Positions 1-34,499 of a DNA stretch of 64,000 nucleotides are shown here, piece after piece. Location of the stretch: NCBI GenBank assembly GCA_028710885.1, contig JAQTTG010000005.1:1483-65482 (forward strand), read 5' to 3'. A program made the translations under genes and the position numbers. Positions within the stretch are counted from its first letter, which is position 1, and every line of letters begins with the position of its first letter. Under the pieces are notes generated by a model, which was not told where the DNA came from, did no database searches, and was given only the letters and a program-made list of their open reading frames with translations. This DNA is from Sulfuricurvum sp. (lineage in GTDB: Bacteria; Campylobacterota; Campylobacteria; Campylobacterales; Sulfurimonadaceae).

Positions 1-305
1 TAAGTTGCTTTACGCGTAATCTCTGGCATGTTTGGGGCTGATATAACCGTGTTTGCCAGTACTAAAGCAGTGTTTCCTGATTCTAGTACCTCAATGCCTC
101 TTTGACTGACCTGTAAACCATTTTTAAAATAAACTGCAATAGCTTCAAATGCTTTTCTTATCGCATCTTTACCTACTGCATTCCGTCCTGGTTCAATAAC
201 TAGTATTGCGTCGTCAGTATATATGTCAATGAGAGTGTCGAAATTTTCTTCAACGATTGCTCTATCAGCTTTTTTAATTTGTTTAATTACTTCGTGTTGT
301 TCCAA
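1..305 (-). CDS. YybH/DUF4440 (SnoaL/NTF2-like) protein, 3' end outside window
   Basis: Not in ORF track. Hand translation from TTG at 305, with AAGGA RBS upstream: MEQHEVIKQIKKADRAIVEENFDTLIDIYTDDAILVIEPGRNAVGKDAIRKAF...; the D..Y.DDA.L and G..AIR pattern is typical of the family. Confidence 0.75.
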   Translation of the reverse strand, partial: MEQHEVIKQIKKADRAIVEENFDTLIDIYTDDAILVIEPGRNAVGKDAIRKAFEAIAVYFKNGLQVSQRGIEVLESGNTALVLANTVISAPNMPEITRKAT

Positions 306-795
306 TGCGATTTTCCTTTATTATATTGAGTTCCTCGTTTCCCGAGGGAATTTCAAAAAATGCAGTGACATGATTGAATGTCGCTTCATTATCAAATTGT
401 GCTCGTTCAGGCTGTTCAACTCTTCTCTTGGCGATTTGTGACAAACACTGCTCATCACTCAAATCGAGGAAAATCATTTCGTGTTCGCATCCGATTTCTG
501 TACAAAGTTGTTTAAACCATGATCTTTGGCGTGCAGTATTTGCAGGAAAATCCATAACTACATTTGTACCCGTATTTAAAATCTGTTGCACATGTGATTT
601 CACAAAAGGTTTAATAAGTGTGGAAAATTTTATAAAATCATCAAAAGAGTTTATTTGATTTGGATAATGGGCTGCAAGCCAATCATCTTCTGAGAGTAAC
701 ACCGCATTTTTCTCAATCGATACGGTTTTTGATTTTGTAGTTTTTCCAGCTCCCATTTTTCCACAAAAAAAAGTGAGGGTTCCTTTTTGATTCAT
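283..795 (-). CDS. AAA_33-like P-loop ATP-binding protein
   Basis: Walker A GKMGAGKT, then DDW and VVMDF motifs; start placed at MNQKG (795) after AAAGGA RBS and just downstream of the attC core. Confidence 0.8.
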   Translation of the reverse strand: MNQKGTLTFFCGKMGAGKTTKSKTVSIEKNAVLLSEDDWLAAHYPNQINSFDDFIKFSTLIKPFVKSHVQQILNTGTNVVMDFPANTARQRSWFKQLCTEIGCEHEMIFLDLSDEQCLSQIAKRRVEQPERAQFDNEATFNHVTAFFEIPSGNEELNIIKENRIGTTRSN

Positions 796-810
796 TAATG
801 TTCCTTTAGT

Positions 811-850
811 GTATAACGTTTGGCATGTCCGCTCGATGGAAGGGTTAGGC
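811..850 (-). repeat. Internally deleted attC site (40 bp), aacA4-like ends
   Basis: Minus strand GCCTAAC-CCTTC-CATCGAGCGGAC-ATG-CCAAAC-GTTATAC: RYYYAAC inverse core, 5-nt spacer, L'' start and GTT core, but the central stem is missing. Confidence 0.75.
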
Positions 851-885
851 AACACCGTTTGTATTGAACGATAAGCCATGCACAC

Positions 886-1230
886 TCATGTTTGCCCTAC
901 CAACATGGGGCGCGGATCGTAGTAGCCACGAACCGACATGATTTGTCCGTCTACGACGCGGATGTGCTCCGCAAACGGAATTGTTCCGAAGGTTGTATCG
1001 ATGTTGAGGAGGGCGACGCAGTGTTCACCATCGACGACGAGACGAATGATTTCGATATGCTTGACGATTCTCGAGAACCGCTCCGTGGCTTCAATGAAGG
1101 CCACCGCACCCTGGTACGTATTCATGGGAAAGACACCAATCACCTCCGGATGAATTGGGAGATTCTTTGGATCGTTTCGACGAACAGCATCGATGTATTT
1201 CTCGACCACGCTAGTTACTTGAGTTCTCAT
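886..1230 (-). CDS. SnoaL-like / NTF2 family protein
   Basis: 114 aa with Y..A, F..P, V.DG.H and DGQI.SVRGYYDP patterns; AAAAGGA RBS; GC-rich relative to its neighbours. Confidence 0.75.
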   Translation of the reverse strand: MRTQVTSVVEKYIDAVRRNDPKNLPIHPEVIGVFPMNTYQGAVAFIEATERFSRIVKHIEIIRLVVDGEHCVALLNIDTTFGTIPFAEHIRVVDGQIMSVRGYYDPRPMLVGQT

Positions 1231-1260
1231 ATGATTCCTTTTTGTTTATTTAATAGCTGT

Positions 1261-1332
1261 ATATAATGTTTAAAATGAGCAATTAAAAAGTCGCCCGCGG
1301 GTTTTTGATTGGTCTCTTTTGGTTTGTTAGAT
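1261..1332 (-). repeat. attC site (72 bp, AT-rich type), core G replaced by A
   Basis: Minus strand ATCTAAC (overlaps stop codon)-AAACC-AAAAGAG-AC-CAATCAAAAA-CCCGCGGGCGAC-TTTTTAATTG-CTCATT-TTAAAC-ATTATAT; GAG/CTC and CAATCAAAAA/TTTTTAATTG pair around an unpaired AC. Confidence 0.7.
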
Positions 1333-1974
1333 CTTCATGATTTGCATATTTGACATTCTTTGCCCATCTGCCCATTGTTCATAAGTTAACATTGTGTTCC
1401 AGCACGCTTCTTTACTCATTTGTTGTATTGGAATAAGGCTTTCAAAATGCTCATGATGCTTAATAAGTTGTCGTGTTTTTATGTCTTTACCCCAGCGAAT
1501 TTTCACTTTGTTGTCTTCAAGAGTATTTTGTTTTTCAGGGACATCTGGAACAAATAAAATGTTTTCTTCACCTTCTGCATTAAATGTTATATCTTTATAA
1601 ATTCCATCTTTAGACCATATAGCATGTCTCTCTAATTCAATATACTTAGGCTTGTTGTACCAAACTTTGTAGCCACATAGTATTTGTCCACCATTTAATT
1701 TAATATATTCTTCTACATTCAAGTCACAACAAGACTGTCTTGACCATGCTTCAGGCTCGATTTCAAGAAAAAAAGGCTCAAGATCACTGATTTTTCTGCA
1801 AATTTCTAATATATCATCATTTATACTTGTTGGAGTTGTCAGCCTCGTGGGATTAAAAAGCTCTTTCAAGCCTTTTTCTATTTCAAATTGACTAAGCTCT
1901 TTTGACTGACTGTTCTTTATTTGGTTTTGTCTTTTTTTCTCAGCCTTTTTTCTTTTATCCCGTTTAGTACTCAT
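1327..1974 (-). CDS. Hypothetical cassette protein with basic N-terminus and possible Cys-His-Asp triad
   Basis: Start placed at MSTKRDK (AAAGGA RBS); motifs CCDLNV...GG...GYKVW...IELERHAIW...KDIT...ILFVPD; stop codon overlaps the attC inverse core. Confidence 0.7.
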   Translation of the reverse strand: MSTKRDKRKKAEKKRQNQIKNSQSKELSQFEIEKGLKELFNPTRLTTPTSINDDILEICRKISDLEPFFLEIEPEAWSRQSCCDLNVEEYIKLNGGQILCGYKVWYNKPKYIELERHAIWSKDGIYKDITFNAEGEENILFVPDVPEKQNTLEDNKVKIRWGKDIKTRQLIKHHEHFESLIPIQQMSKEACWNTMLTYEQWADGQRMSNMQIMKI

Positions 1975-2075
1975 AACTTTTCCTTTATTGTTTAACAATT
2001 TATTCATACCAAAATATACCATTCTGGTAGAAATATCCAACCAAAATTTTGCAAATAGCCATATTTTTAAACATT

Positions 2076-3446
2076 TTACATCGTTTCTCTTAAAAAGACT
2101 TCCGCAAACGCTCCCACCGCACTCTCTATTTCCTCCATCTCAAACCCCCCGAATCCCATCCGTATGGCGTCCCATTCTCCCCCTGAGTAATCCTTGGCAA
2201 AATAGAGCTTGATTCCCGCTTCTTCGGCTCTTTGTCGCAATACGGAGAGGTCGATGTCTGATGCGGGACGGATATTGATCGAGAGACCGCCCCCTTCGCT
2301 AACAATCACTATCGAATCTCCGAGATATTTAATGAGAGATTGTTTCATCAGGTCGTGTTTTTTACGGTTCAGGTTTCGCACCCGTCGCAGATGACGCTCC
2401 CAATGCCCCTCATTCATGAACAGCTCCAGCGTCTTTTGAGTCATGAGGCTGACACGCGAAAAGGTGCCGTGAAAGGAGCGGTATCGATCCATCAGATGAC
2501 GAGGGAGTACGATATATCCGACGCGCAAAGCTGGCGAAAGGGCTTTTGCAAAGGTGCCGATGTAGATGACCCGCTCATTACTGTCGAGTCCTTGGAGCGA
2601 GGGGATAGGGCGGGAGCGATAGGTGAGTTCGCTGTCGTAGTCGTCTTCGATGATGTAGCCCTCATTCTCCTTTGCCCAGTTGAGAAGCCGTAGACGGTTT
2701 GCGACGGGCATTGCCGCACCTGTGGGGTACTGGTGCGAGGGGGTGATGTAGACTACGTGGGCACCGGAGGCACTTAGTTCATCGATTTTCAAACCGTTTT
2801 CATCGACTCCGATAGGGGTGATGTCGTAGTGATGGTGGGTGAAAACTTTTCGGGCGATATGGTAGCCGGGATGCTCGATAGCAAAATGTGGATGGGTCGG
2901 ACGGAGAATATCGGCGATTATCCCCATCGCATCGATAAATGCCCCCGTAACAATAATCTCCGATGCGTCGCACCGTACGCCTCGCAGTTCGGTGAGATAA
3001 CGCGCGATTTCGGTTCGTAGTCCAAATTCCCCTTGCGGATCCGGATACCCCCCCATATCGAGGGTTTTATCGATGGCACGGTTAAACAGCCGCTTCCAGA
3101 GTTTGAGAGGAAACACCTCTTTGGAGAGGCGGACGGGGTAAAAGTTGTAGCGGTAGGTGATGGCGGGTGTGTCGGCTGACTCTATCGTCGCAGAGTCACC
3201 AAGTACAATGAAATCGGCGTCCGCGACGTAGTAGCCGCTTTTGGGACGGCTCTCGATATACCCCTCGGCATAGAGTTGATTGTATGCCGATTCGACGGTG
3301 TTTTTGCTGATGCGGTACTCTTGGGAGATTTTGCGAATCGAGGGGAGTTTGCTCCCGATGGCAAGAGTAGTCGTAATGTCGTGTTTGAGTGCTTCGTAGA
3401 GCTGGATGTGCAGAGGAGTTTCGGATGCGGCGTCGAGGAGATACAT
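2076..3446 (-). CDS. MocR/GabR family regulator (GntR HTH + PLP aminotransferase-like domain)
   Basis: LPSIR...ISKNTVESAY HTH; YITPSHQYPTG, IIEDDYDSE and GTFAKALSPALRVGY motifs. Confidence 0.95.
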   Translation of the reverse strand: MYLLDAASETPLHIQLYEALKHDITTTLAIGSKLPSIRKISQEYRISKNTVESAYNQLYAEGYIESRPKSGYYVADADFIVLGDSATIESADTPAITYRYNFYPVRLSKEVFPLKLWKRLFNRAIDKTLDMGGYPDPQGEFGLRTEIARYLTELRGVRCDASEIIVTGAFIDAMGIIADILRPTHPHFAIEHPGYHIARKVFTHHHYDITPIGVDENGLKIDELSASGAHVVYITPSHQYPTGAAMPVANRLRLLNWAKENEGYIIEDDYDSELTYRSRPIPSLQGLDSNERVIYIGTFAKALSPALRVGYIVLPRHLMDRYRSFHGTFSRVSLMTQKTLELFMNEGHWERHLRRVRNLNRKKHDLMKQSLIKYLGDSIVIVSEGGGLSINIRPASDIDLSVLRQRAEEAGIKLYFAKDYSGGEWDAIRMGFGGFEMEEIESAVGAFAEVFLRETM

Positions 3447-5969: not shown

Positions 5970-6863
5970 TTATTTCTTCCTTTTTGTAATCATGAACAAT
6001 AGGCCTGAAAGTACTATCACAGTACTTAGTAAAAAAAACGATCCAGGGCTTTCATTAAGAAAGACAAATGCCAATAAAGTACCAAAAATAGTTTCTAAAA
6101 GCAGCACACTAGATGTAATAACCGGGGGAAGATATTTTGAAGCAACTGTAATTGCAATAGTTGGAATAGCTGTAGAAACTATGCCAAGTCCTGCGAGTAT
6201 AAAGATATTGTTCAAAAGTATATTTTGATTGATGATAATAGAAGATTGTAGATAGTAGATAGAAGGTATTAATGATAATAAAAGCATCGCGTAAGTAACA
6301 CTGAAAGACGATGGCGAATAAATATTTTTTCGTGAGTGCATAAGAGCATATATTGCAAATAAAAAGGCTACAGTTAGAGCAAGAAAATTTCCAAGACAAT
6401 GTTCAGCTGTGTAATTTGTACTGGAAAAATTGGAGATAAAAAATATAATTATTCCAATAAGTGCAACTATTCCTCCTTGTTTTTCTCTGGGTGATGTATA
6501 TTGTTTAGTCCATAATTGATGAATAATAACATATATAGGAGCTATTGACATTAAAAGGGTAGTTTCTCCTACTGGAGCCAATTGAAATGCTGTCGTCCCT
6601 ATGTAGTAACAACTCAGCATAATAATCGCGTATATCCACGTAATATGTTGCTTTAAATCATTGATAATAGCCCTAGAATTTAGTTTAATAATTAAAAAAA
6701 ATGACAAAAAGACGAATGCGAATATAAAACGCAGAGAAACTATTTCATAAGCTTTAAATGTTGGCAATAGTCTTATAAATATTCCAGCTAATGCCCATCC
6801 AATTGCAGCAGTAAATATTGAAAATAGAGCAATTTTATAAGAAGATTTTTCATAAAAATTCAT
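5970..6863 (-). CDS. DMT/EamA family transporter
   Basis: 297 aa with about ten hydrophobic segments in two repeats; APIYVII and LLLETIFGTLLAFVFLNE motifs. Confidence 0.85.
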   Translation of the reverse strand: MNFYEKSSYKIALFSIFTAAIGWALAGIFIRLLPTFKAYEIVSLRFIFAFVFLSFFLIIKLNSRAIINDLKQHITWIYAIIMLSCYYIGTTAFQLAPVGETTLLMSIAPIYVIIHQLWTKQYTSPREKQGGIVALIGIIIFFISNFSSTNYTAEHCLGNFLALTVAFLFAIYALMHSRKNIYSPSSFSVTYAMLLLSLIPSIYYLQSSIIINQNILLNNIFILAGLGIVSTAIPTIAITVASKYLPPVITSSVLLLETIFGTLLAFVFLNESPGSFFLLSTVIVLSGLLFMITKRKK

Positions 6864-32751: not shown

Positions 32752-33014
32752 AGTATAAAATCCTCTACAGCAAAGATGCGCAAAAAGATGCGAAAAACCT
32801 CTCTGCCGCAGGATTAGCCGATAAGGCAAAAGAGCTGATCGAGATTATCAAATGCAATCCGTTTCAAACCCCTCCAAGCTATGAAAAACTCGTCGGAAAT
32901 CTCAGCGGAGCGTACTCCCGCCGTATCAATATCAAACACCGCCTCGTTTATCAGGTGATCGAAGAGAGCAAAACGGTGAGAATCTTGCGAATGTGGAGTC
33001 ATTATGGGGAATGA
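32745..33014 (+). CDS. yoeB: Txe/YoeB toxin
   Basis: NPF..PP.YEKL.GNL.G.YSRRIN..HRLVY...I...WSHY. Confidence 0.93.
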   Translation: MVEYKILYSKDAQKDAKNLSAAGLADKAKELIEIIKCNPFQTPPSYEKLVGNLSGAYSRRINIKHRLVYQVIEESKTVRILRMWSHYGE

Positions 33015-33040
33015 TATAACTCGAAATAAAAGGTAGAATA

Positions 33041-33250
33041 ATGCAAACGCTTCGTATTGAAATACAAGATGACTTGAAAGATACGTTACTCAATTTTTTG
33101 AAATTATTTCCAACTTCAGCAGTAAAAATTTATGAAGATGACGATAGTGAAGATGAAATTATTTCTGATCAACGTATCGATGAGGTCAAGAGTGGAAAAA
33201 TGGAAGTTTACACACTTGATGAAGTTGCTAAAAAATTAAATTTGAATTGA
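33041..33250 (+). CDS. Small acidic protein resembling a type II antitoxin (orphan)
   Basis: 69 aa; C-terminal D.R..E...G....YTLDEV.KKL.L pattern. Confidence 0.5.
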   Translation: MQTLRIEIQDDLKDTLLNFLKLFPTSAVKIYEDDDSEDEIISDQRIDEVKSGKMEVYTLDEVAKKLNLN

Positions 33251-33260
33251 GAGAAAAACC

Positions 33261-34499
33261 ATGCGTGAATTTAATGAAGAGATGATCAGTTTTATCGATG
33301 CTTCCCCGACCCCGTTTCATGCGGTGGAGTGGATGGCTAAAACACTGGAGTGTCGAGGATTTACCTGTCTGGCTGAAGATGAGAAATGGGAGCTTGAGGA
33401 AGGGCAGAATTATTACGTCACCCGAAATAACTCTTCTATGATCGCGTTTACCTACCCTCCGTGTAAAGAAAAAGGGTACATGATCCTAGGTGCGCATACT
33501 GATTCGCCCCATCTGCGCCTTAAACCCAATCCCCTGACAACATCCGCAGGGGTGAAACGCCTCGGAGTCGAACCCTACGGCGGAGTATTGCTCAATCCAT
33601 GGTTTGATCGCGATTTGGCACTTGCAGGTCGAGTCGTCTATTTGGAGGGGGAAGTGCGTAAAGAGGCGTTGATCAACATCAACCGCCCCATCGCGATAAT
33701 CCCTTCGCTCGCTATCCATTTGGATCGTGATGCCAACAGCTCCCACTCTATCAATGCCCAGACCGATATTGTCCCTATCATTGCAACGGGGGAGATCGAT
33801 TTTGAGAGCTTTATCCTCTCTCATATCCAAGAGAACACCGAAAATCTGACCCTCTTAGCGCATGAACTCAGTTTTTATGATGTACAAAAAGGGTCGTTTA
33901 TCGGGATCAATAGTGAATTGATCGCCTCGGCGCGACTCGATAATCTAGTGAGTTGCTACATAGGGCTTCAGGCACTGTTAGAGACCTCCTATCCGATGAT
34001 GTGTACCTTTATGGATCACGAAGAGGTGGGGAGTGAGTCTCATGTCGGGGCAGGGGGGACATTTGTCGAGGAGGCGTTGCGTCGGATCGCGGGAGATGAG
34101 TATGAGAAGCTGATGCGTCATTCCATCATGGTATCGTGCGACAATGCCCACGCACAGCATCCGAATTTCCCAAGCAAGCATGAAAGTGAGCACGCTCCGC
34201 TACTCAATGGCGGGGTGGCGATCAAGATCAACTCCAATCACCGTTATGCGACCAACTCACGAACGCAGGGACGATTTTTGCAGTGTGCAAGAGCGCTTCA
34301 TGTTTCGACACAGACATTTATCACCCGAAGCGACATGGGGTGCGGTTCCACCATCGGGCCGATCACCCAAACACGATTGGGAGTCGAGACGATTGATGTG
34401 GGGGTTCCGCAACTCTCAATGCACTCGATTCGCGAGGTATGCGGTACGGAAGATGCTTACGGGTTGTATCGAATATTAGTTCATTTGGGGGATTTTTGA
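33261..34499 (+). CDS. apeB: M18 family aspartyl aminopeptidase
   Basis: SPTPFHAV, GAHTDSP, ARLDNL, DHEEVGS, CGSTIGP and SMHSIRE motifs. Confidence 0.93.
   Translation: MREFNEEMISFIDASPTPFHAVEWMAKTLECRGFTCLAEDEKWELEEGQNYYVTRNNSSMIAFTYPPCKEKGYMILGAHTDSPHLRLKPNPLTTSAGVKRLGVEPYGGVLLNPWFDRDLALAGRVVYLEGEVRKEALININRPIAIIPSLAIHLDRDANSSHSINAQTDIVPIIATGEIDFESFILSHIQENTENLTLLAHELSFYDVQKGSFIGINSELIASARLDNLVSCYIGLQALLETSYPMMCTFMDHEEVGSESHVGAGGTFVEEALRRIAGDEYEKLMRHSIMVSCDNAHAQHPNFPSKHESEHAPLLNGGVAIKINSNHRYATNSRTQGRFLQCARALHVSTQTFITRSDMGCGSTIGPITQTRLGVETIDVGVPQLSMHSIREVCGTEDAYGLYRILVHLGDF

Follow-up and report, generated by a model that had tools for sequence, protein, structure and literature searches.

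The closest described counterpart of the locus presented here is the CALIN, the category that goes with IntegronFinder for attC clusters that have no integron integrase (Cury et al. 2016, 10.1101/030866; Neron et al. 2022, 10.1101/2022.02.28.482270). The locus lies at the left end of a 64,000-nucleotide stretch of DNA from Sulfuricurvum sp. (assembly GCA_028710885.1, contig JAQTTG010000005.1), which we refer to as the window. It corresponds to C29:1483-65482 of a 2.64-Mb assembly of 29 contigs, with a genome GC content of about 39% and an estimated completeness of 100%, and the 1482 further nucleotides of the contig to the left were read too. Window positions 1-2102 together with C29:594-1482 are very probably the fossil of a sedentary chromosomal integron. 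Like CALINs, this is a chromosomal array of small, co-oriented cassettes without an integrase, built on the attC plan R''/L''/stem/L'/R' and apparently derived by loss of the integrase gene intI. It differs from them in that only one attC is detectable by a model while the others are internally deleted, in that attI and part of the intI promoter region are retained, which is not required of CALINs, and in that comparison with a congener reveals precisely which deletion removed intI. Because attI is retained, we place the locus between a complete integron and a CALIN.

The sedentary integrons of Campylobacterota offer a second comparison. They include those of G009 (NZ_CALDDG010000119.1), an uncultured Sulfuricurvum metagenome-assembled genome (MAG) with its integron on contig C119, of Arcobacter iocasae KX21116 and of Sulfurimonadaceae MAGs, and they carry the same attC family, scoring 45-93 bits upstream of intI. 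With the G009 integron our locus also shares the attI sequence, the MocR neighbour and one cassette at 96% identity; it differs from these integrons in that its genome has no intI, its sites are degenerate and its array is very short (four cassettes). The closest relatives of the G009 IntI are Campylobacterota IntI proteins of 60-75% identity in Arcobacter, Sulfurimonas, Sulfurovum and Sulfurospirillum, so the integrons of the phylum are present in databases; we found no paper on Sulfuricurvum integrons beyond two incidental co-mentions. Class 1 integrons provide the third comparison. One site of the window has both ends of the attC of the aacA4 cassette, and the sister integron in G009 holds a class 1-type aadA1 cassette. 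In contrast to class 1 cassettes, the window contains no resistance gene and the aacA4-type site, which has lost its central stem, sits on a SnoaL_2 gene; in contrast to class 1 integrons, the host integron is chromosomal and its IntI, as seen in G009, is not IntI1.

The integrase gene, its deletion junction and attI

The initial annotation had read positions 1-1996 as the promoter-proximal end of an integrase-less cassette array in which intI and attI had been replaced by a MocR gene, and had proposed to search the genome for intI, to run covariance models for attC and to compare the cassette order in relatives. No integron integrase was found in the genome of the window with the integron integrase profile TIGR02249 (cut-off 265 bits), for which the best match reached 60 bits. 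Searches of the same genome by tblastn and blastn with the intI of G009 returned only Xer-like matches and the flank on the MocR side, with no remnant of intI. The array is thus not a complete integron in the sense of an intI beside it that encodes a tyrosine recombinase with the IntI-specific insertion and reaches at least 265 bits. Contig C14 ends in a truncated tyrosine recombinase, which was considered as intI and rejected, as it matched the profile with 26 bits in the generic C-terminal catalytic region only and was also unmatched by the G009 IntI.

The same position in G009 keeps the integrase gene. G009 belongs to the same genus, in agreement with the Campylobacterota origin given in the initial annotation. 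Its IntI (419 bits, C119:32980-33945, plus strand) is flanked by a region of 170 nt, the left part of which is homologous to window 1990-2034, and by a homologue of the MocR gene. Left of attI the G009 array holds three cassettes on the minus strand, namely aadA1, a 156-residue open reading frame (ORF) with an attC of the type found in the window, and SnoaL_2. From end to end the aadA1 cassette shows 99.7% identity with plasmid copies; it has a canonical attC and is joined to attI at G|TT. As this canonical cassette is inserted exactly there, we regard the G009 attI as one that works as an attI. Copies of this identity are carried by thousands of clinical plasmids, and the G009 cassette (C119:31851-32724, L027:17851-18724) results either from a real capture of a clinical resistance cassette by an integron outside class 1 or from a chimeric assembly.

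An uninterrupted intI was present in one of 25 genomes of the genus. Two intI pseudogenes were also seen: at G021:C1:203652-204161 an N-terminal fragment of 169 positions with an in-frame TAG (177 bits), and at G027:C1:310639-311583 a match over the full length that is interrupted by one in-frame TAA (419 bits).

The alignment with G009 locates the deletion junction at window 2102/2103. Positions 2035-2102 on the plus strand are a remnant of the intI promoter and leader, homologous to C119:32790-32874, and from position 2103 on the window continues with the 3' end of the MocR gene. The segment missing from the window is C119:32875-33994, 1120 bp, which includes all of intI (32980-33945). The right-hand neighbour itself, outside the integron, is a MocR/GabR-type regulator with a GntR helix-turn-helix and an aminotransferase fold according to Pfam (2076-3446, minus strand). 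The last 27 nt of the leader remnant (2076-2102) now encode its last six codons and stop, and the protein ends in AFAEVFLRETM*, of which the six residues FLRETM come from former intI-leader DNA. In G009 the protein ends in AFAEVWHGIWVCNI*, and a similar AEVW end is found in G023, where no integron platform adjoins the MocR gene. When the MocR protein of the window was used in tblastn, residues 1-451 were matched in G009, G023 and G024, and residues 1-456 only in genomes that share the junction. The same junction was found in G021, G015 and G012 and a second time in the own genome at C29:147470-147650. Since the MocR end of the junction genomes comes from intI-leader DNA and the older AEVW end is that of G009 and G023, the sequence comparison points to deletion rather than insertion as the derived state. 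The altered C-terminus is fixed in several species, and the regulator is of a housekeeping type. The proposed replacement of intI and attI by the MocR gene thus stands only for the loss of intI: the MocR gene is the old convergent neighbour, and attI persists at 1990-2034.

The attI remnant (1990-2034, minus strand) begins with the crossover core GTTAAAC (1996 to 1990), a GTTRRRY core at the proximal end of the array, and continues with the conserved block CAATTTATTCATACCAAAATATACCATT. This core had been noticed earlier as lying about 16 nt upstream of the first ORF; it lies 15 nt before the ATG of that ORF (ORF4) at 1974. We aligned the remnant with the attI-intI intergenic region of G009, with G021 and G015 and with two further copies in the own genome. 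The window copy lacks about 43 internal nt that G009, G021 and G015 keep. The conservation ends exactly at G|TT, and beyond it a different cassette DNA follows in each genome compared. A conserved TGGTATATT at 2021 to 2013 is a possible -10 element of the cassette promoter, and from such an attI-borne promoter the cassettes may still be transcribed.

Two other platforms were observed in the same genome. At C29:134537-134738 an attI-like platform follows the G009-like intI leader for about 25 nt more than the locus in the window and then enters a two-gene module (118 and 97 residues) in place of intI; the module resembles a toxin-antitoxin pair and may be one. A 256-residue ORF on the minus strand occupies the first-cassette position of this platform, which looks like an independent loss of intI. 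At C29:143940-147650 the attI and deletion-junction module is present in a second copy, with the MocR tail reduced to about 35 nt. Before it come a single, very large minus-strand ORF of 1150 residues, apparently helicase-like (a GSGKS P-loop was recognised by eye), and an attC-like site GCATAAC...GTTGGAT. The 98-residue ORF on the left of this copy (starting MKAFVLLFL...) has its match in the same flank of the intI-bearing G009 array, which suggests a rearrangement between integron platforms.

The attC of cassette 1 and the degenerate sites

Two elements of the window, 1261-1332 and 811-850, had initially been described as attC-shaped. The first of these, hereafter E2 (72 nt, top strand equal to the minus strand), is a genuine attC by its fold, by the covariance model of its family and by the position of the family relative to intI. 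As single-stranded DNA it folds with -9.8 kcal/mol (z = -3.2 against shuffles). The bottom strand, which is the plus strand, forms the R box, 5-nt unpaired spacers, the L box and a stem of 10+3 bp, and two unpaired bases (GT, 1312-1313) are located on the R''/L'' arm. R'' is ATCTAAC (1332 to 1326, minus strand), which fits RYYYAAC, adjoins the gene and contains the stop codon TAA of ORF4 (1329 to 1327), as had been noted. R' is ATTATAT (1267 to 1261) where relatives have GTTATAT, so one base of the defining GTTRRRY is lost.

When the region was compared by BLAST with 40 relatives, many short matches covered exactly the 72 nt of E2, often several per contig. To our knowledge attC is not an Rfam family. 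We built a covariance model, R1, from the copies of eight relatives with the window copy excluded; its structure was set to an R box and an L box with 5-nt unpaired spacers, a long stem and, in one arm, two unpaired bases. E2 was detected by R1 with 89.4 bits on the plus strand (E about 1e-16) and 26.8 bits on the minus strand, and by the second family model, R2, with 85.8 bits. We then fetched 80 loci from Campylobacterota and beyond with an IntI protein query, each turned so that the plus strand codes for intI, at position 6001 or earlier. R1 gave 48 hits in these loci. Forty were on the plus strand, the coding strand of intI, and all of these were located within 6 kb upstream of intI; the remaining eight were weaker reverse-strand hits to the same sites, and no hit was found downstream of intI in the 80 loci. 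This is the geometry expected for the attC bottom strand in an array diverging from intI.

The structure of the family is supported by its variation. In an alignment of 32 members 84.7% of the cells were paired, compared with 75.4% in shuffles, and the covariation score was 0.278, compared with 0.133 in shuffles; none of 500 shuffles reached either value. Slid registers of the alignment paired only 37-54% of the cells, and 8 of the 16 stem pairs showed changes on both sides. The R-box TAAC/GTTA is present in 30-32 of the 32 members. At model position 7 a C is found in 30-31 of the 32, and E2 has a T. As the orientation of the R1 hits relative to intI is constant, we took the minus strand as the top strand of E2. 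The opposite assignment, with the plus strand as the top strand and the genes reversed, was ruled out by this orientation in the 80 loci, by the position of intI on the plus strand in G009 and by the unpaired bases lying on the arm of the gene stop.

For class 1 integrons it has been reported that effective recombination requires an identical first nucleotide of the GTT triplet in both partner sites, and that the nature of this nucleotide is not critical if both share it (PMC2811028). By analogy the ATT in R' of E2 should block recombination with GTT partners such as attI.

The second element, E3 (811-850, minus strand, 40 nt), reads GCCTAAC-CCTTCCATCGAGCGGAC / ATGCCAAAC-GTTATAC. The description as attC-shaped was correct for the inverse core GCCTAAC and the core GTTATAC at its ends. 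The site is only 40 nt long and has no fold of its own: it folded no better than shuffles (z = +1.0), and the covariance models gave 11-13 bits. The positive controls in the folding analysis were the aacA4 attC (z = -5.2) and the aadA1 attC (z = -3.5). A reading by eye of E3 as a canonical attC was dropped after folding and model scoring. On the minus strand a stretch of 29 nt is 93-97% identical to the end of the aac(6')-Ib cassette carried by more than 3300 plasmids. In the alignment with the full aacA4 attC, 23 of 24 nt agree at the 5' end of E3 and 8 of 9 just ahead of its core, and about 32 central nt are gone. By this alignment E3 is an aacA4-type attC with an internal deletion, that is, the remnant attC of cassette 2 rather than an attC-shaped hairpin.

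A third site, E1, is located to the left of the window at C29:1353-1403 (window -129 to -79), and its inverse core GTATAAC holds the TAA stop of the SnoaL_3 gene. E1 and E2 share the motifs GTTTAAAAYGAGCAAT and GGTTTGTTA. The 16-mer GTTTAAAAYGAGCAAT occurs twice in the genome, in E1 and E2 only; further copies of the boundary motif elsewhere in the genome were thereby excluded, R1 and R2 also giving one hit each. E1 lacks about 21 central nt, scores 15 bits and has no fold. Over all remnant sites the model scores were 7-15 bits.

Cassette genes and their variation among relatives

The array contains four cassettes with five intact ORFs and reaches about 1.4 kb beyond the left edge of the window to C29:594, where a conserved plus-strand SnoaL gene (C29:242-598) bounds it. 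The four small minus-strand ORFs reported for the window are present in the ORF list at 3-305, 283-795, 886-1230 and 1327-1974. All ORFs of the array are co-oriented, and the stop codons of ORF4 and of ORF1 (SnoaL_3) fall within inverse cores. Their GC content forms a mosaic from 32% to 51%, compared with about 39% for the genome; the counts by hand given earlier, 18/60 at 1501-1560 and 32/60 at 961-1020, were exact.

Cassette 1 (window 1995 to 1267, minus strand, 729 bp) carries ORF4 (1327-1974, minus strand), which encodes 215 residues with a Lys-rich N-terminus, has 33% GC and matches no family. Cassette 2 (1266 to 817, minus strand, 450 bp) contains the SnoaL_2 gene (886-1230, minus strand), which encodes an NTF2-like protein of 114 residues by Pfam and has 51% GC. 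Cassette 3 (816 to C29:1359, minus strand, 940 bp) holds two genes that overlap by 23 nt. Its 5' gene (283-795, minus strand) encodes a zeta-toxin-like P-loop kinase of 170 residues (Pfam AAA_33 9e-23, Zeta_toxin 1e-5), and its 3' gene (window 1-305 and on to C29:1398, minus strand) a SnoaL_3/DUF4440-like protein of 129 residues (Pfam SnoaL_3 8e-6). A degraded homologue of the kinase is located in G024:C42 about 0.7 kb from an attI-like element. Cassette 4 (C29:1358 to about C29:600, minus strand, about 760 bp) contains an ORF of 226 residues. Neither this ORF nor ORF4 gave any match in Pfam or NCBIfam.

The SnoaL_2 gene was also traced outside the window. With its attC it stands third among the cassettes of the intI-bearing G009 array (96% identity), the gene is present in G021 (92%), and 263 metagenomic relatives were found. 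In one other genome its flanks are a GTTAGGC core and a GCCTAAC inverse core. No DNA match to the cassette was found in plasmids. A 91%-identical gene was also seen on the JGI metagenome contig Ga0451650_000155 (L123:4001-4460), with no visible integron around it, its neighbours being valS and a gene for which Pfam reports Y1_Tnp and Bac_DnaA_C. There, GCCTAACCCTTCCATCGAGCGAACGGGCCAAAGGCCGCTTATGGAAAAGG, an aacA4-like attC without the GTT core, follows the SnoaL_2 gene and leads into tandem repeats; this copy may be an off-site cassette insertion.

The comparison of relatives showed that both content and order vary at this locus, as expected of a cassette array. Between the same flanks the cassettes differ in G009, G021 (two cassettes), G015, G023, G014 and G012. 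The gene in first position is aadA1 in G009, a 161-residue ORF in G021 and a 227-residue ORF in G015, and SnoaL_2 is third in G009 and second here and in G021. At G012:C16 (L037:8710-10563) two minus-strand ORFs of 379 and 236 residues were seen at the cassette position beside the same junction. That locus has no attI core, and a GC-rich hairpin repeat, CTCCCAAGCTCCAGCTTGGGAG, which also occurs in G024 arrays, follows the ORFs; the unit may represent another attC type or an insertion of defence genes.

Alternative explanations and the decay of the array

Of the checks that had been proposed, the integrase search found no intI, the family-specific covariance models found 1261-1332, and the comparison of relatives showed variable cassettes. 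A site with a model score and a cassette content that differs in relatives are both the opposite of what the initial annotation had named as refuting outcomes. Its central proposal, the attI-proximal end of an integrase-less array, is borne out by the synteny with G009, which keeps intI here, by the variable content and by the absence of intI from the own genome. The label CALIN is apt as far as an intI-less cassette array is concerned, and fails on the threshold of two attC sites, only one being detectable by a model. The locus is probably better termed a decaying CALIN or integron fossil, as it would fail the usual threshold of at least two attC.

Several observations weigh against an integron fossil. 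In the genome scans R1 and R2 each found exactly one site, 1261-1332, so that with either model the locus falls short of a CALIN, defined by at least two model-detected attC with no intI nearby; moreover both are family-specific models, unlike the general attC model of IntegronFinder. The cassette boundaries other than E2 rest on sequence remnants, core motifs and comparison. Least certain are cassette 4 and the precise position of the left boundary, since the distal end of the array shows no recognisable attC and a search of C29:590-660 there found no foldable one. No sigma-70-type promoter was detected by a consensus scan ahead of ORF4 or in the attI remnant, and an assembly of 29 contigs leaves an intI in unassembled sequence conceivable.

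We considered whether the region could be an ordinary variable islet of acquired small genes with terminator-like or repetitive extragenic palindrome (REP)-like hairpins, free of integron ancestry, in which the heptamers arose by chance in AT-rich DNA. TAAC/GTTA heptamers are indeed common at 39% GC, three of the four proposed boundaries have no fold and score at noise level, and the genome lacks an integrase. Yet in dozens of Campylobacterota genomes the E2-type hairpin family is found upstream of intI only and in a single orientation, the conserved element next to it serves a real integron in G009 as its attI, with a textbook aadA1 cassette captured at G|TT, and 811-850 matches 24 + 9 nt of the aacA4 attC, which makes this explanation very improbable. 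Even less credible is an intI-less arrangement ancestral in the genus, with intI gained in G009 by insertion between attI and the MocR gene. It would account for the presence of a full-length intI in only 1 of 25 genomes and for an intI-less junction common to several species and to two loci of the own genome. An insertion, however, cannot recreate the AFAEVW... end of MocR that G009 (with intI), G023 and G024:C32 (no platform beside the MocR gene) have in common, and the broken intI copies of G021 and G027 speak for a loss still in progress, not a gain.

A living CALIN, whose cassettes are mobilised in trans by an incoming or unassembled integrase and whose site changes are tolerated variation rather than decay, seems unlikely to us. 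E2 keeps its full fold, a changed first nucleotide of the GTT triplet is acceptable if identical in both partners (PMC2811028), and integrase-less arrays are common in the genus. One such array, at G009:C37:94210-98742 (L029:6210-10742), has five E2-type attC (34-84 bits), each after a minus-strand ORF, includes a two-gene unit of 721 and 292 residues and has no intI on that contig stretch. The uptake of a clinical cassette by the G009 integron would further show that activity across systems occurs. However, the same study requires an identical first nucleotide, and here ATT would face GTT in attI and in the remaining sites; nothing is left of the central stem in two of the sites, attI is internally deleted, and intI is absent from a genome of 100% estimated completeness. 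A broader idea is that intI-less attI platforms serve as dispersed landing pads loaded in trans by visiting integrases, and that Sulfuricurvum integrons exchange cassettes with the clinical pool. The module of attI and junction occurs at least twice in the own genome (in the window and at C29:147470-147650), with copies in many congeners. The landing pads would fit these repeated attI platforms, including the third one with a different intI loss at C29:134537-134738, and the exchange would fit the uptake of aadA1 in G009 and the aacA4-type attC on a non-resistance gene here; taken together this idea is doubtful, though less so than the other alternatives.

For a decaying integron the course of events was probably as follows. 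The ancestral layout would be that of G009, where an integron of this type is still active: intI on the plus strand facing the MocR gene in convergent orientation, and attI just upstream of intI. New cassettes would have entered at the G|TT of attI (window 1996/1995), their reading direction on the minus strand leading away from attI. A single deletion of 1120 bp would then have removed intI and about 100 nt of its leader, fusing the intI promoter region to the 3' end of the MocR gene. Following the loss of intI the sites would have decayed, E2 by a G to A change at the crossover, E3 by loss of about 32 nt, E1 by loss of about 21 nt and attI by loss of about 43 nt. As the integrase was not found and the recombination sites have decayed, the cassettes are presumably frozen in place and act as an ordinary small accessory islet. 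The mutated sites are most likely non-recombinogenic, and we infer that excision and shuffling of the cassettes have become impossible, leaving them as fixed genes.

No new kind of system is required to explain the locus, which is a fairly ordinary fossil of a known gene-capture system; its main value lies in a decay path that can be reconstructed and in the links to clinical cassette types. The locus documents the stepwise death of a sedentary integron, in which the deletion of intI altered the C-terminus of a neighbouring regulator and attI and the attC sites then decayed separately while the ORFs remained open. Because only one site passes a model, such fossils are probably missed by standard tools, and integron-derived genes may be under-counted in Campylobacterota. 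Sulfuricurvum integrons share an aacA4-type attC and, in a relative, an aadA1 cassette with clinical class 1 integrons, which bears on the circulation of resistance cassettes in the environment.

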